Shown here: one piece after another, positions 4,528 to 37,025 of the stretch
How the letters are laid out: every line of letters begins with the position of its first letter
How positions within the stretch are numbered: position 1 is the stretch's first letter
Assembly: GCA_023138975.1 (NCBI GenBank)
Contig: JAGLON010000018.1
Coordinates: 32,381-96,380, forward strand
DNA length: 64,000 nucleotides
Direction: 5' to 3'
DNA from: Candidatus Zixiibacteriota bacterium
GTDB taxonomy: Bacteria; Zixibacteria; MSB-5A5; GN15; JAAZOE01
Program-made: the position numbers and the translations under genes
The notes under the pieces: model-generated
Seen by the model: the letters and a program-made list of their open reading frames with translations, nothing else
The model's database searches: none
What the model was told of the DNA's origin: nothing

Positions 4528-4688
4528 TATGGCGGAGAGGCAGGGATTCTCAGTCGGTGGTTTTCGTTAAGTATATAATAGGCCGCAAATTGGGCGTATT
4601 CTAATGCTGTCACTTGTGTTAAGTTAGATCAAGTTGGTTCAAGTTACGTCAAGTTGAGTGAAGTAGATTGTTAGAAAATCGTTAGAAT
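4528..4688 (-). repeat. att-like junction A: 22-nt tRNA-Ser 3'-end core plus conserved ~139-nt arm containing 10-bp-phased iterons
   Basis: tatggcggagaggcagggattc is identical to 36934-36955. The following 139 nt are about 81% identical by hand alignment to 12518-12666, with one 10-nt indel. Confidence 0.7.
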
Positions 4689-4762
4689 AAATTGCCTCGA
4701 CAGCTTTAGAAATTACCAAAATATAGCTGTTTTAGAGTTTATTGTAGTACTTTTATAAACAA

Positions 4763-4911
4763 ATGAAGATTTCAAGATTGCCTCAGATGAGATTGCAGAC
4801 CTTCTCAGTGTTCAGAAAACTACGATCTAACAGTGGACGTATGAAGGATTTATATTGTATTTAAAGCTGTGGCGGTATGTGAGATACGAAGTGATAGATG
4901 TTGAGATGTGA
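4763..4911 (+). pseudogene. Decayed excisionase/AlpA-like HTH_17 DNA-binding gene (frameshift near start plus in-frame TAA)
   Basis: The frame from 4759 translates as TNEDFKIASDEIADLLSVQKTTI*QWTYEGFILYLKLWRYVRYEVIDVEM. This matches the HTH_17 pattern xxEIAxLLxVSKxTIYRWxxEGxIPxxKLGRxxRFxxxDVExW. The TAA at 4828-4830 replaces the conserved Tyr codon. The only ATG (4763) is one frame off. Confidence 0.45.
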
Positions 4912-5049
4912 GTGGAGAAGTGGTCGGATGGAATAATATCAAATGATCGTGTTAGCCCAAAGAGCGTTGGACAGTACAGCGTAATCGCTCAATGCTGTCC
5001 GATCATCAGGAAGATGGTCCCTCGACATTAGAATAGGCAGTGTCGGGCC

Positions 5050-5078
5050 TTGCAAATATAGACAATATTTTATATCTT
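5050..5078 (+). promoter_or_regulatory. Possible sigma70-type promoter of the TPR-CHAT gene
   Basis: TTGCAA (5050-5055), a 17-nt spacer, then TATCTT (5073-5078), 54 nt upstream of the ATG. The context is AT-rich, so a chance match is plausible. Confidence 0.25.
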
Positions 5079-5131
5079 TACTACATATCTATTCTTATTA
5101 AAACAACATGTAATAACGTCTGAGAGGTATC

Positions 5132-7897
5132 ATGAAATCGGCTATCCTAGTGTTTGGATTTGTAGTTCTTTCAGTATTATGTTGTCAACAGGTGAATGCG
5201 CAGAACTGGGAAGAGTCATTGAAAACCGCTGATTCTCTTGCCGAATTGCATAACTACGATTCTGCAATTGTGGTTGGGAACCTGGCATTGATGCATGCTG
5301 AGAAAGAATTCGGCAAGGAAGATACTGTAGTTGCAAACGTATTGTGTCGCTTGGCACTTTATTATGAATCCCTACGTAAATTTGCCGAAGCTGAGCAACT
5401 AATTATACGGTCAACAAAAATAAGAGAGAATATCCTGGGATCAGATCACATAGATGTTGCAAGGCGCTTGAACTCAAGGGCGATTCTACTCTCGAGACAG
5501 GCCAAATATGCTGAAGCTGAACCGCTCTTTGCCCGGGCGTTGGCAATTAGAGAGAAGGTCTTCAGTCCGGACCATGCGGAAGTGGTGAGGAGTATCAACA
5601 ACCTAGCGATTATCTACAAGAAGCTAGGCATGTATGCCGAAGCAGAATTGCTTTATAATCAAGTACTGACAATCGCAAAACAAACACAACATCCACAAAT
5701 GGCTATGTTCCTACGTAACTTGGGGAGTCTTTTTTGGACTCAATGTAGATATCAGGAAGCTGAACCATATCTTATTCATGCATTGACCACAAATGAGAAT
5801 AATTTTGGCCTTGAGCACTGGGCAGTGGCGTCAAACTTGGGTCTACTTGCAAAATTCTACCGTGAGCAAGGCAGATATGATAAAGCCGAGCCGCTTCTCC
5901 TGCGGGCACTGGCCATAAACAAGAAGATCTTTGGTCCAGAGTACCCTGCGGTATCGGAAATCCAAAACGAACTTGCAAATCTTTATGTAGAGTTGGGCAA
6001 AAACGCAGAGGCCGAGGCACTGTATAACAAGGCACTAGCAATCAGAGAAAGAGCTCACCAGAATCACGATCTTGTTGCTGAGACTCTCGAACGAATGTCC
6101 AGGCTATGTCGTATTGAGAAGAACCAATCTGAAGCACTTGAGCTTGCCAAACGTGCCTGTCGGATAAGATTGAAGAACCTCTACGATAACATAGCCTTGA
6201 GTTCTGAAAAGGACGCTCTTGCGTTCTCTCAGAGTTCGAGAAACTCAGTAAACAACTACTTGACTTGCTTCATTGATCTTCAGCCTGCAAATGGTGCTTT
6301 CACCAAGGAAACAGCCAATATAGTCTACAGTAACAAGGGTCTTATTTCCGACGGTATATTTGAAAGGCAAAAGAGCATCGTTCGAGAGACTGATTCTGCC
6401 ACTTTGGCTCTGGCCGAGTCCTTCAAATCTACCAAATCTCAATTATCGAAGCTTTTCGTCAAGGGTCCAGGCGCGGACATACAGGTTTACCGGAAAGAAG
6501 TAGATTCGCTCGAGAGTTTCGCCATTCAATTGGAAGCCAACCTTTCACGCCGAAGCGCCAGCTTCAGACAATATAAAGATAACAGAGATATCAGCGTCAA
6601 TAGACTGGCCTCACTTCTGAGTTATAAGGATATCCTTGTTGAATATTTGAAGTATGACTACTATCAAGTCAAACCTGATAGCAGTATTCCTCGTTACTTG
6701 GCGGTTCTATTAACGAATGAAGCCAAGCCAATTATTGTCAACCTTGGCGATGCTACTGAGATTGAACAGTCAATCGACATGTATCGCAAGCATATGGCAT
6801 ATATCTCGACTGCCGGTTCAGTAGCCACTTTAGCTGACCTTGAGGACTACGGCAGGATTTCGCGCAAGCTCCATCAGCTAATCTGGCAACCGATTGAGGG
6901 GTTTATCGTCGACAAAGAACTAGCGTTGATTGCTCCTGATGCAGCCCTCAATACAATATCTTTTGCAGGTCTGGTAGGCAGCGATGAATCCTATTTGATA
7001 GAGAGTTGTGCTATCCACTATTTGTCAGCCGGGCGAGATATTATTCGTCTGAATGCTCTCTCTGAATCAGGGGTCGGGTTATTTGCTTTGGGAAACCCTG
7101 ACTATGATGCGTCAGCCTCGGATCGCTCAATAGGGCTGCCGGAGTCGGCAAGCGCTATCACGAAAATCGACTATGCTGTTAATAGAAATATTCGTTCAGG
7201 TTGTGGAGAACTTAGTGAGATCGATTTGTCTCCATTACCTGGATCCAATTTGGAAATCCAAAATATAGCAGCAATCTGGGAAGGAACAATGGATGAGCTG
7301 GCAGTCATCTGTTTAGGTAGAAACGCTACCGAAGATAGGTTTAAAGTAAATGCACCCGGCAAGCGTGTTATTCACTTGGCCACACATGGTTATTTCCTTG
7401 GGGGCGATTGTGAATTAGACATGGCGGAAAACAGATATGAATCTAAGATTAGATGGACTGGTGAGAACCCCTTACTTCATTCGGGCCTGTTTTTTGCCGG
7501 TGCTAATCATCATGGAGAGGGTGCTGATAGTGCCGGTGTCGAGGATGGGATATTGACGGCATACGAAGTCTCAGCTTTAGATTTGCTGGGAACTGAGCTT
7601 GTGGTCCTCTCGGCGTGCGAAACCGGGTTGGGGAGGATTCAGTCAGGAGAAGGCGTGTATGGTCTACGTCGTGCGTTTCAAATAGCCGGTGCCGAGACTG
7701 TAATAAGTACTCTGTGGTCTGTGTCTGATCAGATGGCCGCAGAGATGTCGAGCAAGCTTTATGACAGAAAGGGCGTGTCTCTACCAGATACGATTCGACG
7801 AATCCAACTAGAAAAGATTGATGAACTGCGGCGACAGAATAAAGTCGATCACCCGATAAGTTGGGGCGCTCTGGTTGCGTACGGCAATTGGCGCTAA
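5132..7897 (+). CDS. Exported TPR-repeat CHAT-domain (caspase-fold) protease, copy 1
   Basis: The signal peptide reads MKSAILVFGFVVLSVLCCQQVNAQ. Multiple TPR_12-like repeats follow the pattern AEAEPL..RALAI.EK..G..HP.VA..LNNLA.LY. The CHAT dyad is intact: IHLATHGY (His codon 7385-7387) and LVVLSACETGLG (Cys codon 7616-7618). Confidence 0.85.
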   Translation: MKSAILVFGFVVLSVLCCQQVNAQNWEESLKTADSLAELHNYDSAIVVGNLALMHAEKEFGKEDTVVANVLCRLALYYESLRKFAEAEQLIIRSTKIRENILGSDHIDVARRLNSRAILLSRQAKYAEAEPLFARALAIREKVFSPDHAEVVRSINNLAIIYKKLGMYAEAELLYNQVLTIAKQTQHPQMAMFLRNLGSLFWTQCRYQEAEPYLIHALTTNENNFGLEHWAVASNLGLLAKFYREQGRYDKAEPLLLRALAINKKIFGPEYPAVSEIQNELANLYVELGKNAEAEALYNKALAIRERAHQNHDLVAETLERMSRLCRIEKNQSEALELAKRACRIRLKNLYDNIALSSEKDALAFSQSSRNSVNNYLTCFIDLQPANGAFTKETANIVYSNKGLISDGIFERQKSIVRETDSATLALAESFKSTKSQLSKLFVKGPGADIQVYRKEVDSLESFAIQLEANLSRRSASFRQYKDNRDISVNRLASLLSYKDILVEYLKYDYYQVKPDSSIPRYLAVLLTNEAKPIIVNLGDATEIEQSIDMYRKHMAYISTAGSVATLADLEDYGRISRKLHQLIWQPIEGFIVDKELALIAPDAALNTISFAGLVGSDESYLIESCAIHYLSAGRDIIRLNALSESGVGLFALGNPDYDASASDRSIGLPESASAITKIDYAVNRNIRSGCGELSEIDLSPLPGSNLEIQNIAAIWEGTMDELAVICLGRNATEDRFKVNAPGKRVIHLATHGYFLGGDCELDMAENRYESKIRWTGENPLLHSGLFFAGANHHGEGADSAGVEDGILTAYEVSALDLLGTELVVLSACETGLGRIQSGEGVYGLRRAFQIAGAETVISTLWSVSDQMAAEMSSKLYDRKGVSLPDTIRRIQLEKIDELRRQNKVDHPISWGALVAYGNWR

Positions 7898-7925
7898 GAC
7901 TGTACTGGAAAAGGCACCTGCATCA

Positions 7926-8612
7926 CTACGGATCTATTTTAAAAGTATATTTAAGCTTACAGGTTGTTGAATTAGAGCCAGCGCAGGTGACAATCAAGTG
8001 ATATGAACCGGGCTTCATCACCCGGTTAGGGATAATAATCTGCCCCATGCCGCGCTCATCAATCGAGCCAAAAGAGTCCAAGCGCACTACTTCTCCACCT
8101 CGATCGTCGATAACCAATAAGTCATAGAGTCTGCCGGGTGAGTAGTCGGGAACCGCAAAACTTATCGCGGCATCCAGGCCTGCCCCAATAGAGAGCACAT
8201 TAGTTGCAGTAGCGCGGGTTGGTATGAGACGTATCATCTGTACTGGTCGAACATCTCCGGTATCCCCAATCATTACACGCAATCCTATTAGAGTTGGAAT
8301 GACCATCAGGAGTACAAGCAACAGACAGATAGCTGGCTTGAAAACCAAAGGAGCGTCCGGCCACAGATACCGGATCAGTGTCTTCGTTGAAGTAATACTC
8401 TGAGTGGGCTGGGCATGTCGAGCCATTGCCTTTTTTATCTTCGAGCTGTTACGAAGCACTCCTGCATACTTTTCAAATGCGACTACTTCGTTCAGACAGT
8501 GCTCGCATTGCATCAGATGAATCTCCAGACGCTTCTCATCTTCGTCAGAAAGCGCACCCAGTTCATAGGCCGGCAACAGAGCACCCAGATTCTTGTCGGT
8601 GCAGTTTGTCAT
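7926..8612 (-). CDS. Single-pass zf-HC2 anti-sigma factor with extracytoplasmic beta-rich domain, copy 1
   Basis: The zinc-finger motif is HLMQCEHCLNEV and the TM segment is AICLLLVLLMVIPTLIGL. I prefer the start at 8612 (MTNCTDKNLGALLPAYELG). It makes an ATGA overlap with the sigma stop and aligns with the paralogue MKTACVDKSIGSLIHAYELG. Confidence 0.75.
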   Translation of the reverse strand: MTNCTDKNLGALLPAYELGALSDEDEKRLEIHLMQCEHCLNEVVAFEKYAGVLRNSSKIKKAMARHAQPTQSITSTKTLIRYLWPDAPLVFKPAICLLLVLLMVIPTLIGLRVMIGDTGDVRPVQMIRLIPTRATATNVLSIGAGLDAAISFAVPDYSPGRLYDLLVIDDRGGEVVRLDSFGSIDERGMGQIIIPNRVMKPGSYHLIVTCAGSNSTTCKLKYTFKIDP

Positions 8613-9148
8613 ACCTTGTACCCTCCCAGGCTCAGGCATTTTCTGAGCATCGTCCGGCCGCGGTGGAGCAATACATGGCAGTTGCTATTGGAAATAGTCA
8701 TGATTCGGCATATTTCCAAAGTCTTGTACCCTTGGTAAACCAGGCTTAAAACTTGAGCAAACCTGCTGTTCTCGGTTGTTATTTTCTCCAGGCAATTCAG
8801 AATGCTAGCCTCCAAATCGGGATCGACATCCTTGGCTCGAATGTTCTGAAAGTCATTAACGGACTGCTCCGAGGTAATCCGCTTGTTTTCGACCGATGTG
8901 CGACGAAAGTAGCTCTTGATGTTGATCTGCAGCACCCCCCATGCCCATTCATCGAAGCCTACGGTGAAAGTCTCTGCCTTGTATTTTTCAAGTACAGTTA
9001 TACAGGAGTCTTGCACAACATCTTCTGCAGCTTCCCTATCCCTGATTCTATGTGTCGCAAAAAGACTAAATCTTACATGCAGATATTGAAAAATCTTTTT
9101 CTCGGCTGTTTTGTCGCCGTCTCTGGCTTGTTGCAGTAATTGTTTCAT
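8609..9148 (-). CDS. ECF-type sigma-70 family factor, copy 1
   Basis: 179 aa. The region 2-like segment is AAEDVVQDSCITVLEKY...FDEWAWGVL and the region 4 HTH is VYQGYKTLEICRIMTISNSNCHVLLHRGRTMLRKCL. It is a clear paralogue of 25975-26502. Confidence 0.85.
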   Translation of the reverse strand: MKQLLQQARDGDKTAEKKIFQYLHVRFSLFATHRIRDREAAEDVVQDSCITVLEKYKAETFTVGFDEWAWGVLQINIKSYFRRTSVENKRITSEQSVNDFQNIRAKDVDPDLEASILNCLEKITTENSRFAQVLSLVYQGYKTLEICRIMTISNSNCHVLLHRGRTMLRKCLSLGGYKV

Positions 9149-9645
9149 GTTGCTCGATATCGCTCCTACGCCGGAGTTTACGCGCTGAATGCTGGCTGGA
9201 ATAAGACACTCACGAGCCTAAACAACCCTCTACCCTGACCATATATCATTGAAAGACCCACTAAATATAGACCTTGAACCCGATATGTACAATCAAAAGT
9301 TTCATTATATCTGTAAGAATCGGCACCCCTATCACCACACTATACTGTGTGAGTGAGCGTCTCGGAAGAGAACGCCCGAGAACGAACACCCTAATTGGAG
9401 AGGATGCTAAGGACCGTGTCCTGAGTAATAGACTAGCCGACTTATGAATTATGGAAATGGATTGTTTTCACACATATGCATAACTCACGCTTTACCGCCT
9501 AACGGAGATAATAATTAAATTGATGCGCAGTTCGTACAGGATTTTTTGAATATGAGCTAGAATAAGGGAGGGCATCCTATGTAAAAAATAGTCTTTGGAT
9601 AAAAAACGTTCAATTAGAAAATTAAACTAACCAACTGGAGGTTCT

Positions 9646-12264
9646 ATGCGAAAGATAATAGACAAAACTTGTTTAGGAATTGTCCTAATAACAATATTTT
9701 CCCTTTGTTTATTGTTACCGGCTATTGGTCATGCCAATGCACCCGAGGACCCTGTCGTCCAGGAAGAATTATACCAACCTGGTATGGTATTAATTCAATT
9801 ATCCTCATCTGCGATTAATTCTATTGGATATACTATGAGATCTGGAGCTCAATCTGCCACACAGACAGGATTGGTAGACGTTGATGTATTATTACAGGCT
9901 CAAGGTTTAGCTGAGGTTAGCCTTCCATCAGTTCAACCAGCTAATATCGAATTGGCTGCTCAAATGGGACTGGATAGGAGAATTAGGTGTAAAGTTAGTA
10001 CATCTACCGATATTGAATCATTGGCTTCAGATTTAGTTTTACTGGCAGATGTTGAGTCGGCTTCTCCGAATTGGCGACTAGATTTAATGACTGTTCCAAA
10101 TGACCCCTTATATCCACTACAATGGGGCCATGACAATCAAGGACAAATGAATGATTGTGGGTGTGATTGCACTGGCATAGGGACTAAATATTGCTGTGAG
10201 CATGAAAATGGTAGTCCGGTAGGTTCAATTGGTTCAGATGCCGATGTCGATATGGCATGGACTGCGATGGGGTCCTTTGGAGATGAAAACATTATCATCG
10301 CCATTCTTGATACTGGTACCGACCCTCATATCGATCTCAGATTGGTTCCCGGGTGGAATGTGGCCGACAATAATTCCAACACTTCTGATATTCGAGGTCA
10401 TGGCACGGCTACGGCTGGAATTACAGCCGCCATTGCAGATAACAATCGGGGTGTTGCCGGGGTTGCGGGCGGCTGTTCGGTAATGCCTGTTCGCGTTATG
10501 AGTCAATCTGGGGGTTTATTTGCTTCATATATCGCTGATGGAATGATTTATGCTGCAGATAATGGTGCTCATGTTATTTCTATGAGTGTTGGTGGACCTT
10601 ACAGTTCAGAATTTGACTTCGCTTCAAATTATGCATATAACTCAGGCGTATCCTTATTTGCCTCTGCGGGAAATTCTAACTGCAATGGGCTCAGCTACCC
10701 CGCGGGATGCACAAATGTTATTGCGGTTGGTGCAGCAAGTCCTTGTGGCGAGAGAAAAAGATCCAGTAGTATTGTTTCCTGCTTAAGTGGGGGTGTTTGC
10801 GCTGATAATCTCAGTACTTCATGCGATGGAGAACATTGGTGGGGAAGTACTTATGGAAGCGGTTTAGATATTATCGCTCCTACTATATTGCCAACCACTG
10901 CCAGATCAGAAACTCTAGAACGCATCATTCCATCCGGTCCTGAAGAACATTATTCTATGTGGTTTAATGGGACATCATGTTCTTGCCCGTTTGCGGCAGG
11001 AATTGCTGGCCTATTGTTATCTATTGACCCATCGTTAACTCCTGCGCAAGTAAAGCAATTAATAATTGATGGAGCAAATGATGTAACAACTGGTCATGCA
11101 ACAGTGGGTTATGATATTTATACTGGCTATGGAATGGTCAATGCTTTTAACTCAGTAATTGCATTGGCTCTTGATACCGATGAAGACGGCATACTTGATG
11201 ATGGCGACTTTTCGGGTGATCCGAACGACAATCCTTGTACGGGAGGAGTAATCGCCAATTGTGATGATAATTGTGTAGACGATTATAATCCAAATCAGGA
11301 AGATACTGATTGGGACGGTATCGGCGATGAATGTGATAGTTGTCCTGGCTCTCCGCATCAGTGTGGCTCGTGTTATATCCCCCACATACCAGGTGACGTA
11401 AACATGGATGGGGATGTCGACATACTTGATATCGTATATCTAATAAATTTCAAGTACAAAGACGGACCGCCACCAGAACCCTATGAAATAGAGGGCGATT
11501 TTAATTGTGATACACTAGTAAACATTATAGATATTACTATTCTAATTGATTATAAATATAAGGGAGGTGCTGCACCTCAAGATTGCTGTCCTCAGAGTGT
11601 TTTGCTAGAACCGACGCCAATTTTCTTAAAGGTCAAACTTGCGATTATAGAGGCTTCTATCACAGAAAAGTATGACGGCAACACCACTACTATCATGCTT
11701 AATTCTGAGATTGACTTGCAGGGTCTTGAGCTTCGAATCAATTGTGATGAAGGAGCTACAATCACCAACCTGACACCAGATCTCCAACTCTTTGCCTCTG
11801 AAACAGATGGCCAGCGCCAAATTGGGCTGCTCGACACGAAAAACAATGGCTACTTGGCAACCGGGCTCAATTCGGTTATTAAAGTAACCGGTAAGGCTCA
11901 AATTACAGAAGCGATTGGTGTGAACAAGGAAGGAACTGGAGTGGGTATCAAGATCAAAAACGCAGAGAAGGAAGCGATGCTGCCCACAGCTTTTGCCCTC
12001 CATGACTGCTACCCTAACCCGTTCAATCCCGTAACTACTATCAGCTACGACCTACAGGATGCGGTGAACGTAAAATTGGTAGTCTACAATGTCATCGGAC
12101 AGCGCGTCGCGACTCTTGTTAATGAATACCAAGCGGCTGGTAGCTATCAGGTTGACTGGAATAGCAGAAACAAAAGCGGCCAAACTGTCGCCAGTGGAAT
12201 CTATGTCTATCGCTTGACCGCAGGTGAGTTTGTCGAGACGAAAAGAATGATGTTACTGAAATAG
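9646..12264 (+). CDS. Secreted subtilisin-like S8 serine peptidase with TSP3-like module, dockerin-like repeats and T9SS-type C-terminal sorting domain
   Basis: It has a signal peptide and the triad motifs AILDTGTD (Asp), GHGTATAG (His) and NGTSCSCPFAAG (Ser). The dockerin/EF-hand-like pair reads GDVNMDGDVDILDIVYLINFKYK...GDFNCDTLVNIIDITILIDYKYK. The tail reads YPNPFNPVTTISYDL...SGIYVYRL...KRMMLLK. Confidence 0.85.
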   Translation: MRKIIDKTCLGIVLITIFSLCLLLPAIGHANAPEDPVVQEELYQPGMVLIQLSSSAINSIGYTMRSGAQSATQTGLVDVDVLLQAQGLAEVSLPSVQPANIELAAQMGLDRRIRCKVSTSTDIESLASDLVLLADVESASPNWRLDLMTVPNDPLYPLQWGHDNQGQMNDCGCDCTGIGTKYCCEHENGSPVGSIGSDADVDMAWTAMGSFGDENIIIAILDTGTDPHIDLRLVPGWNVADNNSNTSDIRGHGTATAGITAAIADNNRGVAGVAGGCSVMPVRVMSQSGGLFASYIADGMIYAADNGAHVISMSVGGPYSSEFDFASNYAYNSGVSLFASAGNSNCNGLSYPAGCTNVIAVGAASPCGERKRSSSIVSCLSGGVCADNLSTSCDGEHWWGSTYGSGLDIIAPTILPTTARSETLERIIPSGPEEHYSMWFNGTSCSCPFAAGIAGLLLSIDPSLTPAQVKQLIIDGANDVTTGHATVGYDIYTGYGMVNAFNSVIALALDTDEDGILDDGDFSGDPNDNPCTGGVIANCDDNCVDDYNPNQEDTDWDGIGDECDSCPGSPHQCGSCYIPHIPGDVNMDGDVDILDIVYLINFKYKDGPPPEPYEIEGDFNCDTLVNIIDITILIDYKYKGGAAPQDCCPQSVLLEPTPIFLKVKLAIIEASITEKYDGNTTTIMLNSEIDLQGLELRINCDEGATITNLTPDLQLFASETDGQRQIGLLDTKNNGYLATGLNSVIKVTGKAQITEAIGVNKEGTGVGIKIKNAEKEAMLPTAFALHDCYPNPFNPVTTISYDLQDAVNVKLVVYNVIGQRVATLVNEYQAAGSYQVDWNSRNKSGQTVASGIYVYRLTAGEFVETKRMMLLK

Positions 12265-12313
12265 CTAGGTGGGGGAACCGACCGACCGGGTGATATTGCT
12301 CGGCTACGGAAGA

Positions 12314-12355
12314 CCCGGTGGGATACATACTTGTCATCCCACCGGGTTCTTTTTT
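12314..12355 (+). terminator. Rho-independent terminator of the S8 peptidase gene
   Basis: An 11-bp stem, CCCGGTGGGAT (12314-12324) paired with ATCCCACCGGG (12336-12346), is followed by ttctttttt. Confidence 0.8.
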
Positions 12356-12406
12356 ATCAAGTCAGCACGGTTGCCTTCATCCGGAATGACACCAGAAAAA
12401 TGAACA

Positions 12407-12666
12407 ACAATTAAATAGAGTTGTTTTAGAATTAAAACAGAGAGATATTATTCCGTAATCTACTAGCACACATAGAGTTGTTGCGTTAGAGTAATTATGG
12501 CAGAGAGGCTGGGATTCTCAGTCGGTGATTTTGGCTAACTTCTTAAAAGTCAGCAAATTCGACGTATTTTGCTGCTACAACTATAGTTAAGTTAGGTCAA
12601 GTTGGTTCAAGTTGCATTAAGTTCCGTTGAGTTGAGTGAAGTAGATTGTTAGAAAATTGTTAGAAT
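12407..12666 (-). repeat. att-like junction B (attP-like): P'-arm, 22-nt tRNA-Ser core (20/22) and P-arm with 8 iterons
   Basis: 12407-12495 is about 70% identical to 36848-36933 (left of the tRNA). The core at 12496-12517 has two mismatches. 12518-12666 is about 81% identical to 4550-4688. Confidence 0.65.
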
Positions 12667-12776: not shown

Positions 12777-12804
12777 TTTAAAATGAAAACCACGTTACAA
12801 AATA

Positions 12805-25110: not shown

Positions 25111-25288
25111 AAAACCACATTAATATTCCTATAACAAGATAACAATTGGGGAGTATATAATAGCTCAATTTAATACTTGTTAATATAATGCTAAATATAA
25201 CTATAGCAAGCTTAATCTTAATGCCCACAGAAGGTTCATTTACATTTTTAGAAGACTAACATTAGGATTTTATTATTTCCTTATTATT

Positions 25289-27583: not shown

Positions 27584-27923
27584 AATAGAGCCTACATAAT
27601 ATTTTTTCTTTGGAGTGTCTTTTTACTTCCACATTCACTTTCGCAAGATTATCACTGACCGTCACTCTTTTCATCACACTGTATTTCACATTCGACTGAA
27701 TCACTACCAAGTTTTGAGAGATAGTATCATGTGAGACAATAACCATTTCCAGATTGTTTTGAGCAATGCGATTTGCCGTTGAAATCTCATCTACTGAATA
27801 GTTGACCATGAGCTGGCTCAACATGAATATAAGAACTGAAAAACCAAGCATGAAGATAAACGCTCCAACTAGAACTTCAACGATTGTAAATCCTTGCTCG
27901 TTTTTCAAGATTTCGCTATTCAT
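27558..27923 (-). CDS. Minor pseudopilin (GspI/PilV-like size)
   Basis: The leader and mature N-terminus read MNSEILKNEQG|FTIVEVLVGAFIFMLGF. The protein is 121 aa. Confidence 0.7.
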   Translation of the reverse strand: MNSEILKNEQGFTIVEVLVGAFIFMLGFSVLIFMLSQLMVNYSVDEISTANRIAQNNLEMVIVSHDTISQNLVVIQSNVKYSVMKRVTVSDNLAKVNVEVKRHSKEKILCRLYYEFAIPAE

Positions 27924-29301: not shown

Positions 29302-29776
29302 GCATTAACGTGTCGTGTTCTTTTTCATATTGAAGCACAACATAGGATGGTTTAATGGTAATAAGTTTCCAAAAACTCAATGAATCACCCAGTTCAAGAA
29401 TTGTAGTCGCATCATCTCCTGCAGCCATTAGGGCTTGTGAATGCGGTGGTTGATTTATAAATCCAATAAACCTATGGCCCATACTGGGGCGCGGCGGAAT
29501 CATAGTGGCCTGTGGTCTCTTACTCTTTCTAGTCACAGACGCTTTAACAGGAGTATTTTCTGCTACTTTAATGGCAAAGGGATTAACTTTAGGCGGAATA
29601 TACTTCAAGTCCTGGACTGTGATGGTTTTCTTATTTTCAAAACTTTTTATCTGGTTACTTGGTCTAATCGCATCGTAATCTGCAAGCCAATTCAGATTAG
29701 AACCCCAAACATAAATGAGTAAAACAAACAGCATACCAAGAACCAATCTCTTCCTGCTTTGACTACTCATGGGCAC
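29291..29776 (-). CDS. Bitopic inner-membrane assembly protein (GspC/PilP-like)
   Basis: It has an N-terminal TM segment (LVLGMLFVLLIYVW), a Pro-rich linker, and a small C-terminal beta domain. The call rests mainly on its position in the cluster. Confidence 0.4.
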   Translation of the reverse strand: MPMSSQSRKRLVLGMLFVLLIYVWGSNLNWLADYDAIRPSNQIKSFENKKTITVQDLKYIPPKVNPFAIKVAENTPVKASVTRKSKRPQATMIPPRPSMGHRFIGFINQPPHSQALMAAGDDATTILELGDSLSFWKLITIKPSYVVLQYEKEHDTLMLVQ

Positions 29777-30263
29777 CAGCCTGCATAAGAATTAGCATTC
29801 TAACAATGCTGCCGTCACTGGCATCTGCATTCAGCCCCGCCTTTTGCACATTTACATAATATTTTGTTTCAAACGTATTGAGAAGGTTCATTAATCGTTT
29901 AATCTTACCCGAATACACAACCCGGTACTGGGTATTATTGTTTTTTGGCGATTGACTTGTTTCCAGTTGTGTCAGTTCACAACGATACTTTTCACCCAAA
30001 TCAGTGAAAAGATTAGTATAAAACGGTTTTCGATCTTTGAGAGTCTCAAGGAGTTGTTGTTTATTCTTTAATTGTTCCTGTAGGAGCTCTATCCTCCTAT
30101 CAAGAGAATTTGGATCGTCAGTCAAACTGGATGTAGCTGAAATCACATCATAGTTAATTAGCATCGAATCAATGAATTTGAGATTGATAAAATAACTCAA
30201 AAGCAAAATCACAAGAGAAATTGCAAAGACAGTAAGGTGATATCTGTTTATGTACTGTTTCAT
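29763..30263 (-). CDS. Bitopic coiled-coil assembly protein (GspM/PilO-like)
   Basis: It has an N-terminal TM segment (LTVFAISLVILLLSYFI), then a coiled coil and a small domain. The call rests on size and position. Confidence 0.4.
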   Translation of the reverse strand: MKQYINRYHLTVFAISLVILLLSYFINLKFIDSMLINYDVISATSSLTDDPNSLDRRIELLQEQLKNKQQLLETLKDRKPFYTNLFTDLGEKYRCELTQLETSQSPKNNNTQYRVVYSGKIKRLMNLLNTFETKYYVNVQKAGLNADASDGSIVRMLILMQAGAHE

Positions 30264-31504
30264 TCGCCAACCATCGAAAACTTATACCACGCGGCTTCCT
30301 GCGGATTCCGCTGATTATTTTGCTTACTCATAGACTGAATTTTCATACAGTCATAACCAAAAGCGGAATTGACATACTCCTGGTATCTAAAAATCGCATC
30401 TTCTTTTTCAGCCTTACCCTGAATTGAATAGTAAATCTTCTGTCCATCAACTTTTTCAGTGTATATCTCAGCTAACACTAAATCTTTAGGTTTTCGTTGA
30501 CAGAATTTTGATAGCCCGGCACTTAGCTGATTGGTCTTGATCAAATCTTCTTCATAAACGGATAAATCCTTATCAACAGTTTTAACCTTTTGCTCAAGAG
30601 CGCTGATTTGCATCAGTTTATCTTCGTATTTCATATAAAGCTGTTCAGAATTATCTTTCAGAAGATTTAAGACAAGAGCAGACACGCCAAGACACAAGAC
30701 AAGTATCAGGCATATTGATACTAGTAATTTACAACTCCCAATAGCAGTTGATAGCTGTCTTATATTTGGATGAGTCAGTTCCTTTAAAACAAACTCTTTA
30801 TTTTGCTTTATTAAGATACTTTGAGTAGTGATGAAATTGTTGGATTCAAGTTCAGGAAAGGATTCCAGCCTATCAGTAAGTAACTGTTGTTCATCATGTG
30901 TAAGATTTCCAGTTTTTTCAAAGTAAACAATCTCATTGTTCTTTGTATAACCAAGTAGTATGAATATTTTTCCAATAGATAACTGCCGGCATCGCCCTCT
31001 ATTTTTAACTGATGCATGCTCAGAAAAGATAAATCCAAACAGCGGAAGATATTGAGAGACGAAAACCTTTTCAGCAACAAGTTGTTCACTAATGCTTTTA
31101 GCAAATGACTCATCATATCCATAAACGACATAATAGGAGTTTTCTTTTATGTCATACTTCTGGTACTTCGCCTGTACTTCCTTGCTAAAAAGACTGTTGC
31201 AATCTTTTCTCAAATCATCAAGATTTTGGTTTTCGGCATTACGAATTAGGTTAAAAGCTACCGGCTCAGCTAACAGAACAGTAATTTGCTGTCCACAATA
31301 GAGTTGCTTCTTCTTGATCTCCTGTACGAATTTACTGAGGCTGATGCATGAGTCGCCAGTCAAGTCACCTTCCCGTAAAACGGAGAGCTTACTTTTTCTA
31401 TTGATTGAGAAGAAACAAACATAGTCAAATGATACGACCAGATAATAATCCGTCTCATGAAACGGAGAAAACTCCTGTACAAGATTTTTCACTGGAATAG
31501 CCAC
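30260..31504 (-). CDS. Cytoplasmic domain + TM + periplasmic coiled-coil assembly protein (GspL-like or PilM-PilN fusion-like)
   Basis: 414 aa with a single central TM segment (LLVSICLILVLCLGVSALVL). No canonical actin-fold motifs are recognisable by eye. Confidence 0.4.
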   Translation of the reverse strand: MAIPVKNLVQEFSPFHETDYYLVVSFDYVCFFSINRKSKLSVLREGDLTGDSCISLSKFVQEIKKKQLYCGQQITVLLAEPVAFNLIRNAENQNLDDLRKDCNSLFSKEVQAKYQKYDIKENSYYVVYGYDESFAKSISEQLVAEKVFVSQYLPLFGFIFSEHASVKNRGRCRQLSIGKIFILLGYTKNNEIVYFEKTGNLTHDEQQLLTDRLESFPELESNNFITTQSILIKQNKEFVLKELTHPNIRQLSTAIGSCKLLVSICLILVLCLGVSALVLNLLKDNSEQLYMKYEDKLMQISALEQKVKTVDKDLSVYEEDLIKTNQLSAGLSKFCQRKPKDLVLAEIYTEKVDGQKIYYSIQGKAEKEDAIFRYQEYVNSAFGYDCMKIQSMSKQNNQRNPQEAAWYKFSMVGE

Positions 31505-31507
31505 CGA

Positions 31508-33448
31508 CTAATCCTTCTTAATAATTGAGTCGAGATCTATATTTTGTTCAGAGCCATAATACACATGAGGTGTGATATATATCATGAGTTCTGAAGTGTT
31601 GGTCGTGCTACTTGTACTCCGAAATATCCACCCAATAAGAGGTAGGGAACCCAGTATAGGAAACTTCTTAATTGATTTGCTTTCTGTACTCTGGACAAGC
31701 CCACCAAGAATGATAGTTTCTCCGTTTTTCATTCGCACCGTGGATTCTAAAATACGATGACTAATCGTTGGTGGTACATCAGGATCAAACTTTCCCGAAG
31801 GGGTTGAAAATTCGGGTTTAATATCAACAATCAATTCTCCCGTCTCATTTACATAAGGTGTTACTTCAATCTTCATATTCGCTTCAATTGTCTCAAACCT
31901 TTGAGACGTTTGCGTCGAGCCAGTAGAACTTGTATTAGAGTGTACAGTTTGAGTCTCAAGGAGATAATACTGTGTTGTCCCGACATTAATAGAGGCCGAA
32001 TGCCCACAGAGACTTGCAATTTTCGGTCGAGATCTCACGTTTGCCTTGCCTTCCAATTGCATTATTTGCAATTGTGCGAAGAAATTATCAGACAATGGAC
32101 CAATCTTTGAGATCCCCAACCTATTGCCTAACCAGTCCAATTCATCATTCAGAGTATTACCAGACCCGCTAATAGTGATACTGGGGTAATACGATTCAGC
32201 ATAACTACTATCTGGGCTAAATGAATCATTCATAAGTATATCAAACTTATAACTATCTGTATTCACATAATCAATAACCAGGACATCAAACAGAACCATC
32301 GCCGGAGGGATATCAATTGAATTAAGAAATAACCTCAGCTCATCTATTACTGTTTTTGGTCCCACGGCCACAAAACCATTGTGCTCAATGATAACTTTCA
32401 GGGAAACTTGCTTCGTTAGAAAGGGAGGAACTAATGGTTCGACATCCTTGGCAACAAGGTGCTTCAGAAGGATTAATTCTGAAACAAACATATCCTCGGA
32501 AGTCTTGGCTCCAAAAAAGAATATTCCCTTGTCCTTTTTATATGTGTATTGTGTGTTTCGTAAGAGTGACCCTAACGCTTCATCGAGTGATAAATCTACA
32601 AAATTAGCACTTATACTTCCCTCTATTGTACCCTTGGTAAAAAAACTAGCTCCACATTGATTACCGATTGTGGAAATAACATCTCCCAATGGAGCATTAG
32701 TAACATTGATAGTCACCAAATCTTTATCACATCGTATTGAAAAGCGTGAAGCCTTTCCCCTTCCATTTCCGGATTCCATTTGAGAACTGATGTAATAAAT
32801 ATCTTCTGCCACTCTAAGGATAAAACCGTTAGAGGAAAACAGAACATCGAGACCTTTGTCCAATGGGACATCTATTAGTTTGCCGGAAAGTCGCCCATTT
32901 GTACTACTCTCGATAACAATATTTATTCTGGCTTTTTCTATAAGTTCATCGACAATTCGTTGTAAAGATGCTTGCGATAGGTTATACGAAATCTTTCCCT
33001 TATCAATTTCTATTTCCAGCGGAGGAGGCGGTGGAACAGGCTGGGCTGGCTTATATATTTTTATTATTTCTCCGGTTCGTTCCCAATCCAGATCATACTC
33101 CTTAATAATAAACAGTAAGGCATCATTAAGTGAGACTTGATCAAGCCGTAAAGTAATTATCCCGGTAACAGAAGTGTCAATAAAAACTGATAACTCATAC
33201 GCCCGAACCAATGCTTTCAAGGCATCGTCCAATTGCAACCCAACAAATTCCAATTGCGGAATTATTATCGTGGTATCAAGTATATTGCCGACGAGTCTTG
33301 ATTCCAGGGTATCAACAACATTCCCGCTTGTCATAATTACCTTGTTCGTATCAGCCGGAGTATTATCATTTATCTCATCTTGACACAGAACAAAACCATT
33401 TAGGCAGACAAGTGATAGTATTATGAAACTAAAATAAAATTTATACAT
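31508..33448 (-). CDS. Outer-membrane secretin (GspD/PilQ family)
   Basis: It has a signal peptide. The C-terminal secretin signature reads VRMKNGETIILGGLVQSTESKSIKKFPILGSLPLIGWIFRS...ELMIYITPHV. Confidence 0.85.
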   Translation of the reverse strand: MYKFYFSFIILSLVCLNGFVLCQDEINDNTPADTNKVIMTSGNVVDTLESRLVGNILDTTIIIPQLEFVGLQLDDALKALVRAYELSVFIDTSVTGIITLRLDQVSLNDALLFIIKEYDLDWERTGEIIKIYKPAQPVPPPPPLEIEIDKGKISYNLSQASLQRIVDELIEKARINIVIESSTNGRLSGKLIDVPLDKGLDVLFSSNGFILRVAEDIYYISSQMESGNGRGKASRFSIRCDKDLVTINVTNAPLGDVISTIGNQCGASFFTKGTIEGSISANFVDLSLDEALGSLLRNTQYTYKKDKGIFFFGAKTSEDMFVSELILLKHLVAKDVEPLVPPFLTKQVSLKVIIEHNGFVAVGPKTVIDELRLFLNSIDIPPAMVLFDVLVIDYVNTDSYKFDILMNDSFSPDSSYAESYYPSITISGSGNTLNDELDWLGNRLGISKIGPLSDNFFAQLQIMQLEGKANVRSRPKIASLCGHSASINVGTTQYYLLETQTVHSNTSSTGSTQTSQRFETIEANMKIEVTPYVNETGELIVDIKPEFSTPSGKFDPDVPPTISHRILESTVRMKNGETIILGGLVQSTESKSIKKFPILGSLPLIGWIFRSTSSTTNTSELMIYITPHVYYGSEQNIDLDSIIKKD

Positions 33449-33462
33449 ATCCCTCCGGCATG

Positions 33463-34887
33463 TTAGCTGGCAATTACTTTAAGTATTTCTATGGGGGTAG
33501 TCTCCCCCTCTTTGACTAGCGACAGCCCTGCCTTTTGAAGTGTATAATAACCGTTATTAACGGCATAGCTGAGAATATCAGCCTCTCGACTCCCCTTGGA
33601 GATCATATCTGACAATGTTTCATCGACCGGTAAAAATTCATATATGGCCTTGCGGCCCAAAAATCCGGTGTCCCCACATTTCGTGCAACCTCGGCCGGAG
33701 AAGACTTTTATATCATCTTCGGCTCCAATTTTCCTGGCAGCCGCCTTTTGTTCAATATTCGTAACCTCTTCTTTACAAGATGTACAAATTTTCTGAACAA
33801 GCCTCTGGGCAACTATGAGCTTCAGTGTAGAACCCAATAAGTAACTCTCAGCGCCTAAATCCAACATACGTGTAATCGTGGCAATAGCATTGTTAGTGTG
33901 CAACGTTGATAAAACTAAATGCCCGGTCAAGGATGCTCGAATCGCCTGATCCAGAGTTTCTTTATCTCTAATTTCACCAACCATTATTATATTAGGATCT
34001 TGTCTGAGTATCGCGCGTAGGGCATTTCCAAAGGTCAAGTCAATGTCTGGCCTGATGTGAGTCTGATTGATTCCCTCAAGATTATACTCAATGGGGTCTT
34101 CAATCGTTGTGATATTCACATTAGGTGACCGGAGTTTATTCAACATGGCGTACAAAGTAGTAGTTTTCCCAGAACCGGTCGGACCCGTAACAAGGACCAT
34201 GCCGTTAGCCAGAGCAATTTTCTCCTCAAGGAGTGCCTTATGTGATTGGGGAAGCCCCAATAGGTCCAAATCAAGTCGCAGGCTTTCTTTATCAAGTAGG
34301 CGGAGAACTGCCTTTTCGCCAAAATCTGTCGGCAGAATCGATACTCGGATATCAACGACCTTTGTTCCTGTATTAAACCTGATACGACCATCTTGAGGGC
34401 GCCGTTTCTCAGAGATATCGAGATTCGACATTATTTTGAGTCGGGCGATAATCTCAGCAATAGATTCTTTTGGGATATCTCTATCCAATCGCAATGATCC
34501 ATCAACACGAAATCGACAGGCCATATGTTTTTCAAAAGGCTCAAAATGAATATCTGAAGCCCCGACTGACACAGCTTTATTGATTATCTCATCAATATGC
34601 TTAATTATTGATGGATTATCATTGATCGCATCTTCGGATGGTTGTTGTCCGGTATATTTTGAAATAACTGTTGAACCTAATAAGGTTTGCATCTGCTCAT
34701 CAAACTCTTCTACAGAAAGATACTGTAATGGAATTTGTCTTTTTTCCCTAAATCGTATATAGCTTATTACGGAAAGGTCTGTATTCTTACAGACCAGTAG
34801 CTTTTCAATGGACTCATTATTGAGTTGAGGGCAAATATAATATTTCTCAAGAACCTGCGGATCCCATCCGCCATGAGCTTCCGACAT
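33463..34887 (-). CDS. GspE/PilB-family type IV filament assembly ATPase
   Basis: Walker A is GPTGSGKTTT, Walker B is IIMVGEIRD, and the His box is GHLVLSTLHTN. The tetracysteine motif is CTSC...CTKC. Confidence 0.9.
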   Translation of the reverse strand: MSEAHGGWDPQVLEKYYICPQLNNESIEKLLVCKNTDLSVISYIRFREKRQIPLQYLSVEEFDEQMQTLLGSTVISKYTGQQPSEDAINDNPSIIKHIDEIINKAVSVGASDIHFEPFEKHMACRFRVDGSLRLDRDIPKESIAEIIARLKIMSNLDISEKRRPQDGRIRFNTGTKVVDIRVSILPTDFGEKAVLRLLDKESLRLDLDLLGLPQSHKALLEEKIALANGMVLVTGPTGSGKTTTLYAMLNKLRSPNVNITTIEDPIEYNLEGINQTHIRPDIDLTFGNALRAILRQDPNIIMVGEIRDKETLDQAIRASLTGHLVLSTLHTNNAIATITRMLDLGAESYLLGSTLKLIVAQRLVQKICTSCKEEVTNIEQKAAARKIGAEDDIKVFSGRGCTKCGDTGFLGRKAIYEFLPVDETLSDMISKGSREADILSYAVNNGYYTLQKAGLSLVKEGETTPIEILKVIAS

Positions 34888-34906
34888 GATTACCTCAAAT
34901 GGTGCT

Positions 34907-34934
34907 TTGCAAATGCAATCTTAATATGTATAAT
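34907..34934 (+). promoter_or_regulatory. Near-consensus sigma70 promoter for the platform/peptidase genes in the divergent intergenic region
   Basis: TTGCAA (34907-34912), a 16-nt spacer, then TATAAT (34929-34934), 35 nt upstream of the ATG at 34969. Confidence 0.5.
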
Positions 34935-34968
34935 ATAAATTAATATTCTACAGGGTCAAGAGATTGCA

Positions 34969-36165
34969 ATGCCAAAGTATAGATATATTGGAAAATTAGT
35001 TGATGGACAGAATGTAGAGGGTATGCTAAAAGCAGATTCCCCTGAGGATCTACAAAATATACTCTTAAAAATTGGGGTTTTCCTCACATCTTATACAATT
35101 TCAAAAAGTGTCATCAACCAGTATATTACCAGAAGTCTGCGGAGTAACGATATTACCCGTATGACCCGCCAATTGGCTGCTCTATCCGAGTCCGGTATCA
35201 CATTCAAAGATTCACTGGAATCTGTAAAAGAACAGATTACGGATAAAACGCTAAATGAAATGCTCAATGATATTGCCGCTTCAGTTGATTCCGGTAGATC
35301 AATCGCCGATTCATTTCGACAGTTTCCGGTGTTTTTCGACACCCTTTTTACGTCGATGATTGAAGCCGGAGAAATTTCCGGAACTCTGGATGTATCGCTC
35401 GACCGCATTGCAACTTATCGTGAACGGTCTGACGACACCAATAAGAAAATCCGCTCTGCCCTGTCCTACCCATTATTAGTACTAATGGTCACACTGCTCG
35501 TTGTCTTTGTCCTGGTTATATATATTATTCCAATATTCGCTTCAATGTATGAGAATTTTGGCACCGAGCTGCCTAAATTGACACAATATGTGGTTGCCAT
35601 TAGTGAATGGGCACAGGATAATATTTATGTTTTTCTTATAGCGCTTATCATCGGAGCAGTAGGAATTATTCTTTCTATTTTGAATTCGAGAGTGAGATAT
35701 TTCATCAGTGCCATCCAATTAAGAATACCTTTTGTCGGACGCATTCTAAAAAAAATAATCAACGCTCGCTTTGCAAGAACTCTTGGGACTCTCCTGCAAT
35801 CCGGAGTCCCCACGCTGTTTTCGGTTGAGATTGCGATTAAGACAACCGGAAATGCCTATATTCAACAGAAAATCTCAGATCTGACCATGCTGCTCTCGCA
35901 GGGTAAGTCTTTTACCGATACGATTGGAAATTATCCTGTTTTTTCCAAAACAGTTATTCGCATGGCCGCTGCCGGTGAAAAGACCGGACAACTGGGCAAG
36001 ATGCTCTCAAAAGCAGCAGATTTTTATGAATCCGAAATCGATCACGAAATCGGCACCCTCACGACCCTATTCGAGCCGATGATAATCATATTCCTCGGTG
36101 TTTTTATCGCGTTTATCCTGGTTGCCATGTATTTACCGCTCTTTGATCTCATGAGTACCATGTAA
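34969..36165 (+). CDS. GspF/PilC-family inner-membrane platform protein
   Basis: 398 aa with the typical duplicated T2SSF domains (MIEAGEISGTLD and MAAAGEKTGQLG) and three TM segments. Confidence 0.9.
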   Translation: MPKYRYIGKLVDGQNVEGMLKADSPEDLQNILLKIGVFLTSYTISKSVINQYITRSLRSNDITRMTRQLAALSESGITFKDSLESVKEQITDKTLNEMLNDIAASVDSGRSIADSFRQFPVFFDTLFTSMIEAGEISGTLDVSLDRIATYRERSDDTNKKIRSALSYPLLVLMVTLLVVFVLVIYIIPIFASMYENFGTELPKLTQYVVAISEWAQDNIYVFLIALIIGAVGIILSILNSRVRYFISAIQLRIPFVGRILKKIINARFARTLGTLLQSGVPTLFSVEIAIKTTGNAYIQQKISDLTMLLSQGKSFTDTIGNYPVFSKTVIRMAAAGEKTGQLGKMLSKAADFYESEIDHEIGTLTTLFEPMIIIFLGVFIAFILVAMYLPLFDLMSTM

Positions 36166-36177
36166 AGGCCACAGGCG

Positions 36178-36798
36178 ATGATATACCTGCTGAGCAAGTT
36201 TTCCCTTAATACATGTCAAAAAATACTGGTCTTTAGTCCAAGATATTTTCTGCTTGATTTATTATGGGTTGTTTTAGGCTTCTTGACCTTTTCTTTTATT
36301 CCCAATATAGAAAAGGCAATTGTAACGGGATTGCTATTACTTTTATTCTTTATCGTATGCATTACCGATTTCAATTTCCTGTTGATTCCTGATGTTGTGT
36401 TATTTGGATTTGCCTTAGTCGGAATATTGAATATACTTTTGGGCAATTCAACCTCGGCATTTGATGCCTTTCTTGGAGCTGTTGTTGGATTTAGTCTTTT
36501 CTTTGGAATAGGCTGGCTGGGGAAACTTGCATTCAAGAAAGATGCTCTAGGTGGTGGTGATATCAAACTAGTCGTTGTTTTAGGGCTTTTTATCGGCTGG
36601 CAGGGGATATTTATAATGCTGTTTATTGGATCACTCAGCGCCTTGATTTTGGTTTGTATTATACGCCTAATCAAAAACCAAACCCAACCTCACATTCCAT
36701 TTGGACCGTTTTTGGTATTGGGCAGTATAGTTGCATACATTTGGGGTAATGATCTATTATACTATTTCCTCCAAGCATCCACTTTAATTTTTGTGTGA
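36178..36798 (+). CDS. Minimal A24-family prepilin peptidase (no N-terminal Zn/methyltransferase domain)
   Basis: 206 aa and polytopic. The catalytic Asp contexts are ITDFNFLLIPD and GGGDIKLVVVLG. There are no CxxC pairs at the N-terminus. Confidence 0.8.
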   Translation: MIYLLSKFSLNTCQKILVFSPRYFLLDLLWVVLGFLTFSFIPNIEKAIVTGLLLLLFFIVCITDFNFLLIPDVVLFGFALVGILNILLGNSTSAFDAFLGAVVGFSLFFGIGWLGKLAFKKDALGGGDIKLVVVLGLFIGWQGIFIMLFIGSLSALILVCIIRLIKNQTQPHIPFGPFLVLGSIVAYIWGNDLLYYFLQASTLIFV

Positions 36799-36847
36799 TT
36801 CTGGACAGTAATTTTTAGCCTATCCAAGCTTCCTTGTTAAGATAAAC

Positions 36848-36955
36848 ACAATTAATGAAGTTTTTAGTAGTAAAGCGGAGAGGTGTTTCTTCCTATTCTA
36901 TTGCTGTACATAGTGTTATGGCGTTATAATTATTATGGCGGAGAGGCAGGGATTC
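36848..36955 (-). repeat. att-like junction at tRNA (attL-like): P'-arm plus 22-nt core overlapping the tRNA 3' end
   Basis: 36848-36933 is about 70% identical to 12407-12495. The core at 36934-36955 is shared with 4528-4549 and 12496-12517. Confidence 0.6.
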
Positions 36956-37025
36956 GAACCCTGGAACGAGTTACCCCGTTAACTGCTTAGCAGGCAGCTG
37001 CCTTCAGCCGCTCGGCCACCTCTCC
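36936..37025 (-). tRNA. tRNA-Ser (anticodon GCU), class II long variable arm, CCA encoded
   Basis: The minus strand reads GGAGAGGTGGCCGAGCGGCTGAAGGCAGCTGCCTGCTAAGCAGTTAACGGGGTAACTCGTTCCAGGGTTCGAATCCCTGCCTCTCCGCCA. It has a 7-bp acceptor stem, the anticodon loop CT-GCT-AA, and the T-arm CAGGG-TTCGAAT-CCCTG. Confidence 0.95.

Follow-up and report, generated by a model that had tools for sequence, protein, structure and literature searches.

The window analyzed here is a 64,000-nt stretch of DNA from Candidatus Zixiibacteriota bacterium (GCA_023138975.1, JAGLON010000018.1:32,381-96,380, forward strand), in which two genomic islands lie in tandem beside a tRNA-Ser(GCU) gene. The genome is a metagenome-assembled genome (MAG) assembled from short reads, and the European Nucleotide Archive (ENA) holds the same DNA in ERZ23498442 (ZHAN22-2_SAMN18200495) scaffold_5 (465 kb), again from a Zixibacteria MAG, where the window corresponds to roughly 102,529-166,528 in reversed orientation. 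Both islands are bounded by copies of a 22-nt core that corresponds to the 3' end of the tRNA, and by conserved arms adjoining the core. The arms are designated L1, L2 and L3 (left arms) and R1 and R2 (right arms) at the junctions at 4.5, 12.5 and 36.9 kb; loci from relatives or metagenomes are numbered L002 to L036. An earlier note on this DNA had proposed that related site-specific elements lacking an integrase, either decayed or mobilized in trans, had integrated in tandem at the tRNA 3' end. The features on which this proposal was examined are, from left to right (T9SS, type IX secretion system; ECF, extracytoplasmic function):

1-4242, plus strand: C25 peptidase / FG-GAP gene with a T9SS tail (Pfam), cut by the window edge with its frame open at base 1, and followed by L1
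4433-4527, plus strand: left arm L1, diverged, to the left of core copy 1
4528-4549, plus strand: core copy 1, a 22/22 match and the outermost core
4550-4688, plus strand: right arm R1, the tRNA-distal end of island 1, with the architecture of R2 minus one 10-bp unit
4550-12495: island 1, 7.9 kb, 44.3% GC, encoding a TPR-CHAT protein, a zf-HC2 anti-sigma factor, an ECF sigma factor and an S8 subtilase with a T9SS tail (Pfam)
5132-9148 and 22087-26502: sigma/anti-sigma/CHAT trio modules, one per island
12397-12495, plus strand: left arm L2, the tRNA-proximal end of island 1, its outer part (to 12437) collinear with the spacer between the S8 gene and the tRNA of L017
12496-12517, plus strand: core copy 2, a 20/22 match, at the middle attP-like junction
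12518-12666, plus strand: right arm R2, the tRNA-distal end of island 2, with TCAGTCGGTG, six YYRAGTT units and the pair TTGTTAGAAA/TTGTTAGAAT
12518-36933: island 2, 24.4 kb, 38.3% GC (gene content from Pfam on the open reading frames, ORFs)
36839-36933, plus strand: left arm L3, the tRNA-proximal end of island 2, 72% identical to L2
36934-36955, plus strand: core copy 3, the 22-mer TATGGCGGAGAGGCAGGGATTC at the intact tRNA
36936-37025, minus strand: intact tRNA-Ser(GCU), the anchor of the array (ARAGORN; Rfam RF00005, 58 bits), whose last 20 nt belong to core copy 3

The tRNA-Ser(GCU) is the sole tRNA of the window according to ARAGORN, and Rfam agrees. Its last 20 nt plus two flanking nt (TA) make up the core, which in the sense of the tRNA comprises the last 4 nt of the T loop, the 3' half of the T stem, the 3' strand of the acceptor, the discriminator base and CCA. 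Three direct copies are present, all on the plus strand and at the places proposed earlier, where none would be expected in shuffled sequence. One of the two substitutions in core copy 2, an A-to-T change, yields CCCAG in the tRNA sense, which is the T-stem variant of the tRNAs of the relatives L003, L016 and L017; these tRNAs carry a compensating CTGGG on the opposite side of the T stem. The other substitution would turn the terminal acceptor pair into G-U.

To the right of core copies 1 and 2 the same arm begins at exactly the same T-loop base. R1 and R2 are identical in 113 of 139 aligned pairs (81%) with one 10-nt indel, and their local score of 127 compares with 19.7 +/- 2.5 in shuffles. 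Conservation is blockwise with variable spacers in between: a 10-nt block adjoining the core (TCAGTCGGTG) is identical in both arms, and further blocks cover 17 nt within the repeat array and the final ~30 nt, which hold a pair of motifs. The array consists of 10-bp-phased YYRAGTT units, five in R1 and six in R2, which explains the indel. The terminal pair is formed by TTGTTAGAAA and then TCGTTAGAAT or TTGTTAGAAT, at a spacing of 11 nt. On the other side of the core, L2 and L3 agree in 68 of 95 aligned pairs (72%, corresponding to 69% of columns), with a score of 45 versus 18.5 +/- 2.4 in shuffles. The values of about 81% and 70% given earlier for the two arms were hence confirmed, and the similarity of the arms was found to lie far above both shuffles and composition-matched segments. 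Outside the arms no DNA similarity between the islands was detected and their cargo is wholly different.

No left arm had been recognized beside the 4528 core. However, a diverged copy, L1, is present there. In the 90 nt next to the core (4438-4527, in register and ungapped) it is 58% identical to L2, and over the corresponding 90 nt it is 44% identical to L3. All window segments of similar GC served as the null for left arms (0.34 +/- 0.03, maximum about 0.44-0.46), and the L1/L2 identity was reached by none of 2568 composition-matched segments. In a repeat search (family D1) the repeat shared by 4528 and 12496 extended 42 nt to the left of the core, from 4486. Because L1 is present, all three junctions read left arm-core-right arm or, for the last one, left arm-core-tRNA, with island 2 ending in L3, core and tRNA-Ser(GCU) directly at the tRNA 3' end. 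As judged from this arrangement, all three junctions are attP-like. Of the layout drawn up earlier, the tandem array and the attP-like middle junction therefore stand, whereas the order flank-core-arm at 4528 does not, since L1 makes this a third attP-like junction. With a left arm of its own, the junction at 4528 does not mark where the array ends on the outside, and the C25 gene is probably the tRNA-proximal, last gene of a further unit to the left rather than host flank. The array thus probably continues beyond the left edge of the window, and it comprises at least two, probably three, consecutive units without an integrase.

Left arm, core and right arm together form a composite site of about 260 bp. 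Arm-type attP sites of the lambda type are of this size. The folding energy of the arms was not unusual on either strand (z -1.4 to +0.6) and Rfam gave no match in the window besides the tRNA; therefore the arms look like protein-binding DNA and not RNA.

Neither island encodes a recognizable integrase, as had been stated before: PF00589 was absent from every large ORF between 4.5 and 37 kb in the Pfam analysis, and tblastn with the integrases of L003 and L016 returned noise across the 64 kb. A decayed excisionase-like gene that had been described was not recovered; neither an excisionase gene nor a remnant of one was found in the 64 kb, and tblastn with the HTH_17 protein of a relative likewise gave noise. 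Among the Pfam matches, which comprise secretion, pilus, sigma-factor, peptidase and Rhs-like genes only, there were no phage structural, replication or packaging genes. In the islands no trace of transfer genes, conjugation relics or a relaxase was seen.

The same site was then compared between genomes. In the collections the closest relatives of the window genome show a FapA identity of 59-66% and none exceeds 66%, so that a comparison at allele level is not possible. The gene order RR2-RR1-FapA-tRNA-Ser(GCU) (RR, response regulator) is kept across Zixibacteria, while the DNA beyond the tRNA 3' end differs in every relative. In most of them none of the window genes left of the tRNA were found at that site, and island 2 genes do not follow the tRNA-Ser in any relative. 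The earlier note had predicted an empty site in which the C25 gene is directly followed by the tRNA. This was not seen in any relative; L017 shows the S8 gene followed by the tRNA instead.

In four relatives, represented by separate assemblies (L003, L016, L033/L034 and L035/L036), a tyrosine integrase of 375-380 aa starts ~110 nt after the tRNA-Ser(GCU). The family has 147 homologs below 1e-40. Among the accessions with integrase-bearing islands of relatives are JAWLBI010000001.1 and GCA_024449895.1. The arm upstream of these integrases (the integrase-side arm) is conserved and contains TTCTAACA motifs and a TTGACA-17-TATATT element. That the integrase adjoins the same tRNA in four relatives argues that tRNA-Ser(GCU) is a dedicated target of one integrase family. 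In the 8-11 kb readable in L003, L016, L032, L033 and L035 there was neither a second core copy nor a homolog of the right arm, and for this reason the right arm cannot be tied to an integrase-bearing element.

Two side observations concern the same place. L002 ends at window position 36997 and the contig of L004 stops at the tRNA 3' end, so that independent assemblies break in or at the tRNA-Ser; population heterogeneity or repeats at this gene would give such breaks. In L033 (JGI Ga0598260_0000222) a stretch of ~9 kb (424-9802) with a second integrase (308 aa) and many small ORFs replaces FapA between the response regulator and the tRNA-Ser, and mobile DNA therefore lies on both sides of the tRNA-Ser in that genome.

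Similarity of the window arms to the integrase-side arms was observed on both sides of the core. The left arms show in-register identities of 0.42-0.48 to integrase-side arms, with an empirical p of at most 0.001 in five of six comparisons and of 0.02 for L2 versus L003; for L3 against L003, L016 and L032 the values are 0.45-0.47. Distant relatives without the integrase gave no comparable arm similarity. The left arms lack the promoter-like TTGACA-17-TATATT element that is kept in the integrase-side arms. Among all DNA compared, the pair TGTTAGAA-N3-TGTTAGAA (with up to two mismatches) is confined to R1, R2 and the integrase-side arms of L003, L016 and L032.

A member of the family, P0222 (MCK5125567.1), is a tyrosine integrase 74% identical to that of L003. 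It shares with the window proteins the sequencing run, the MAG accession series and a longest contig of 507,995 bp, and from these matches the window genome most likely encodes its candidate cognate integrase outside the window. Relatives of P0222 were absent from the viral contigs of IMG/VR. Its island was recovered from the same metagenome/MAG:

L032, Logan contig SRR13892605_145493, 1-11268: starts inside the T arm of a tRNA of the CCCAG type, followed by an integrase-type arm, P0222, a 1178-aa SIR2 protein, a Ser/Thr kinase, PP2C, VWA and a DUF87/TrwB-like ATPase

By its gene content L032 looks like a defence island.

The comparison with L017 (GCA_044344285.1) was the most informative for the history of the array. 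There the S8 subtilase gene is the neighbour of the tRNA-Ser, at a distance of 238 nt, and island 2 is absent in between. Since the S8 gene and its left arm adjoin the tRNA in L017 without island 2, the latter was inserted precisely at the core. Over 2813 nt of DNA the window and L017 are 85.4% identical in the S8 block (9634-12437), whereas the syntenic chromosome across the tRNA shows 67-72%, which implies that the S8 unit was exchanged between lineages after the chromosomes had diverged. The homology includes the outer part of L2, and L3 shows an in-register identity of 0.54 to the arm beside the L017 tRNA. No other close homolog of the S8 protein was obtained among 5.8 billion proteins, the next match reaching 45% over 56% of its span. 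In both genomes the S8 unit is without an integrase. The T-stem variant in core copy 2, which is also that of the L017 tRNA, agrees with this history. Island 1 may be composite, as the S8 gene and the left arm alone are common to L017. By eye, two direct copies of ~130 nt (...gagttgatatga.ccaaaacgtta.tctgaggaaacaaacccatttttccagcaaatgtggacacatgccggtcatcaaa...) were seen in L017 at 15860-16150, between an MmeI_N-like gene that follows S8 and hslU.

From these data we favour, with a probability of roughly 0.75, that islands without an integrase accreted in tandem at tRNA-Ser(GCU) through site-specific recombination by the tyrosine integrase family of the relatives. Repeated site-specific recombination at the tRNA 3' end would have built an array of integrative islands, each unit being bounded by the ~260-bp composite site with its right arm of 10-bp-phased repeats and a TGTTAGAA pair. 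The recombinase would belong to the family found directly after the same tRNA in related Zixibacteria, and that this family made the junctions is inferred from the arms and from its position. In a first step a unit with S8 and the left arm as its tRNA-proximal end would have come to adjoin the tRNA; in a second step island 2 would have integrated into this tRNA-proximal site, leaving left arm-core-right arm junctions inside the array. The interpretation in the earlier note is thereby partly supported: the observation itself was confirmed, and its central reading, tandem integration of related elements, decayed or mobilized in trans, is backed by the comparison with the relatives, whereas some of its details are not.

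Several findings weigh against accretion by this family. With relatives of at most 66% FapA identity, neither a true empty site nor a single-island allele of this genome was seen. The likeness of the left arms to the integrase-side arms is weak, and integrase-bearing relatives have the paired motif on that side of the core where the integrase lies, but the window has it on the opposite arm. An integrase-bearing element that combines the two types of arm is not known. Homologs of the right arm were found neither in JGI metagenomes nor in IMG/VR or any fetched relative locus; in the same two collections the core/right-arm junction AGAGGCNGGGATTCTCAGTCGGTG had no match, and in IMG/VR a distal right-arm 20-mer and a left-arm block had none either. 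The placement of P0222 on the contig of the window is read solely from the equal 507,995-bp figures. In L017 no second core copy exists within 9.8 kb, so that the S8 unit there is not demonstrably bounded. Finally, the GC content of island 1 is host-like, as it and both flanks lie at 43-44%. The 38.3% GC of island 2, compared with about 44% in the flanks, speaks for accretion; tetranucleotide correlations do not discriminate.

The alternative that survives best sees the islands as fossils, which would have integrated site-specifically with integrases of their own that were deleted later, leaving fixed DNA whose arms are decaying remnants. We consider this a serious contender with a little less than even chances. 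A host-like island 1, the absence of an integrase or excisionase remnant, the loss of the promoter-like element from the left arms, the divergence of L1 from L2 (only about 57% identity), the two substitutions in the middle core and the missing distal repeat in L017 would all be expected of such remnants. Decaying arms, on the other hand, do not readily account for blocks of R1 and R2 that stayed perfectly conserved (10 nt at the core, the 17-nt array stretch and the last ~30 nt) amid variable spacers, nor for an outermost core that is intact in 22 of 22 positions. Similarly, an S8 unit without an integrase that is far closer between two genomes than their chromosomes are, next to the same tRNA in both, is easier to understand if integrase-less units are moved, and an integrase of the family is present in the same MAG.

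Much of this evidence also bears on present mobility. Continued excision or movement of the units, in trans or in cis, is a tentative proposition to which we give somewhat less credence than to its opposite. Right arms that are conserved in blocks, an outer core that is intact, an S8 unit that travels without an integrase and an integrase resident in the genome speak for it; the diverged L1, the left arms without the promoter-like element, a middle core with two changes and an L017 locus in which no bounded unit is seen speak against it. A bolder version takes the locus for a functioning array that is anchored at the tRNA and made of operon-sized cassettes, none of which ever carries an integrase. 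A complete attP-like site would bound each cassette, and one tyrosine integrase, specific for tRNA-Ser(GCU) and encoded elsewhere in the genome, would insert and excise the cassettes in trans and exchange them between lineages of Zixibacteria. This version seems unlikely. If it were true, the array would be integron-like in function, for modules of 8-24 kb, and the S8 unit would be one travelling cassette.

Local segmental duplication, in which a core-arm unit and a trio were copied by unequal or illegitimate recombination without any integrase, is very improbable. It could draw on the occurrence of one trio and one core-arm unit per island, confirmed by Pfam, and on the C-terminal domain and internal segment shared by the C25 and S8 peptidases. 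However, the trio proteins are just 30-39% identical and their genes differ in arrangement and orientation, compared with 81% identity of the arms at the DNA level; a recent duplication was rejected on this ground, and the two trios appear to be old paralogs. Furthermore, the units have no DNA similarity outside the arms, the right arms begin at precisely the same T-loop base, and in relatives the same site was occupied independently by integrase-mediated events. Least credible of all is that the arms are a generic intergenic repeat, a structured RNA that lies near tRNA fragments by chance, or an assembly artefact: this could be suspected of AT-rich arms with simple 10-bp repeats in a short-read MAG, the more so as the repeat-array pattern alone matches unrelated simple repeats in metagenomes (TCAAGTT array, 14 matches, all simple tandem repeats without an adjacent core or arm, and no viral match), but within the 64 kb the arms occur solely at the three core copies, the structured-RNA reading was rejected on folding energy and Rfam, repeat copies of 57-81% identity are too diverged for assembly collapse or chimeras, and both the ENA scaffold and a Logan contig match the window at 100% identity in the overlaps, the L3-tRNA side included.

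The accretion favoured here was compared with known systems. In Streptococcus, cis-mobilizable elements (CIMEs) and tandem accretion of integrative and conjugative or integrative and mobilizable elements (ICEs and IMEs) have been described (Pavlovic 2004; Bellanger 2011; reviewed in PMC5704250). CIMEs have lost the genes for integration and transfer, have kept their att sites and are found in tandem at the 3' end of tRNA or other target genes (PMC5704250). The layout of the window matches CIMEs and tandem accretion in this sense (PMC5704250). Like CIMEs, islands 1 and 2 of the window keep, at the level of sequence, the core and conserved arms at both ends and are without integration and transfer genes. 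An origin by deletion from an ICE or IME would have to be read from the weak match of the left arms to integrase-side arms (p 0 to 0.02), conjugation relics being absent. Unlike in Streptococcus, the visible array has no integrase-bearing partner, the candidate integrase P0222 lies outside the window, any mobility is putative, and the host is an uncultured member of the Zixibacteria with no trace of conjugation or a relaxase in the window.

Classical tRNA islands and prophages with a lambda-type attP share further properties with the locus. Identity blocks from the T loop to the 3' end were reportedly described for tRNA-integrated islands by Williams in 2002. In the window, too, the core is the tRNA 3' end from the T loop on and a functional tRNA is restored; the islands are bounded by direct repeats of this end (22/22 and 20/22), the attP-like site of ~260 bp contains short repeated arm motifs, and a tyrosine integrase family specific for one tRNA is associated. 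At the same site in relatives island 2 is absent; for island 1, which shares only S8 with L017, this is less clear. In contrast to classical islands, those of the window lack the defining integrase gene as well as phage or conjugation genes.

The layout matches the ssrA islands of Dehalococcoides even more closely than streptococcal CIMEs. These islands lie in tandem downstream of a single-copy t(m)RNA gene and are delimited by 20-bp repeats of its 3' end; insertion occurs in the T loop, conservation extends around the repeats, and integration sublocations from the T loop to the 3' end are mentioned as well (PMC3146451). Fifteen islands have no integration module and were read as possible cis-mobilizable elements, while most islands carry the recombinase, the serine recombinase DsiB (PMC3146451). 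The family associated with the window, in contrast, is a tyrosine integrase that is absent from all visible units (at least 37 kb of array); moreover, long two-sided attP-like arms stand at every junction, and the phylum is a different one. With integron arrays the window has recombinase-less units and recombination sites between them in common, and one outside integrase could service them, a resemblance that is functional only. An adjacent intI and palindromic attC sites are missing, the units are of operon scale (8-24 kb), and the sites are tRNA-derived with direct-repeat arms. By its gene content and sites the array is neither an integron nor a prophage.

Regarding the cargo, island 2 encodes a 2618-aa Rhs-like protein (DUF6443), two small ORFs, an ECF sigma / zf-HC2 anti-sigma / TPR-CHAT trio, three pilins, four unknown ORFs, a secretin, a T2SSE ATPase, T2SSF and a prepilin peptidase. 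The Rhs-like protein (12805-20661, minus strand) combines DUF6443 with many YD/Rhs-like repeats and a glycine-rich C-terminal region and looks like an Rhs-type polymorphic toxin. The distance between its stop codon and the R2 arm is just 138 nt; therefore the usual downstream immunity gene would be missing or severed at the island boundary. The genes at 26617-36798 form a compact cluster resembling a pilus or a type II secretion system (T2SS), in which the secretin has STN and FecR_C-like N-terminal parts, so that a whole secretion or pilus machine appears to be cargo of island 2. The sigma/anti-sigma/CHAT trio may represent a signalling or protease module that recurs in the islands of the window; integrase-bearing islands of relatives showed no such trio. 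The C25 peptidase is encoded by the last gene before L1, and the S8 peptidase by the last gene before L2. The two peptidases have in common an internal segment (64% aa and 70% nt identity, 1210-1373 versus 11173-11336) and the T9SS C-terminal domain (59% aa identity, with C25 residues 1320-1407 and S8 residues 785-872 listed as the shared stretch), and the two units therefore end in related secreted-protease tails.

Taken together, no new mechanism is revealed, as Streptococcus, Dehalococcoides and other bacteria already provide established cases of tandem accretion and of att-flanked islands without an integrase; the locus is a clean example of this already known route by which genomes gather foreign DNA. 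It provides an unusually complete natural set of substrates, in which three attP-like junctions come together with a candidate arm-type motif and with a candidate for the cognate integrase in the same genome, and which could be used for testing the movement of integrase-less islands in trans. For the Zixibacteria it shows an uncultured phylum gathering large accessory modules at one tRNA gene, among them secreted proteases, ECF sigma/anti-sigma/CHAT trios and a pilus- or T2SS-like machine with what looks like an Rhs-type toxin.

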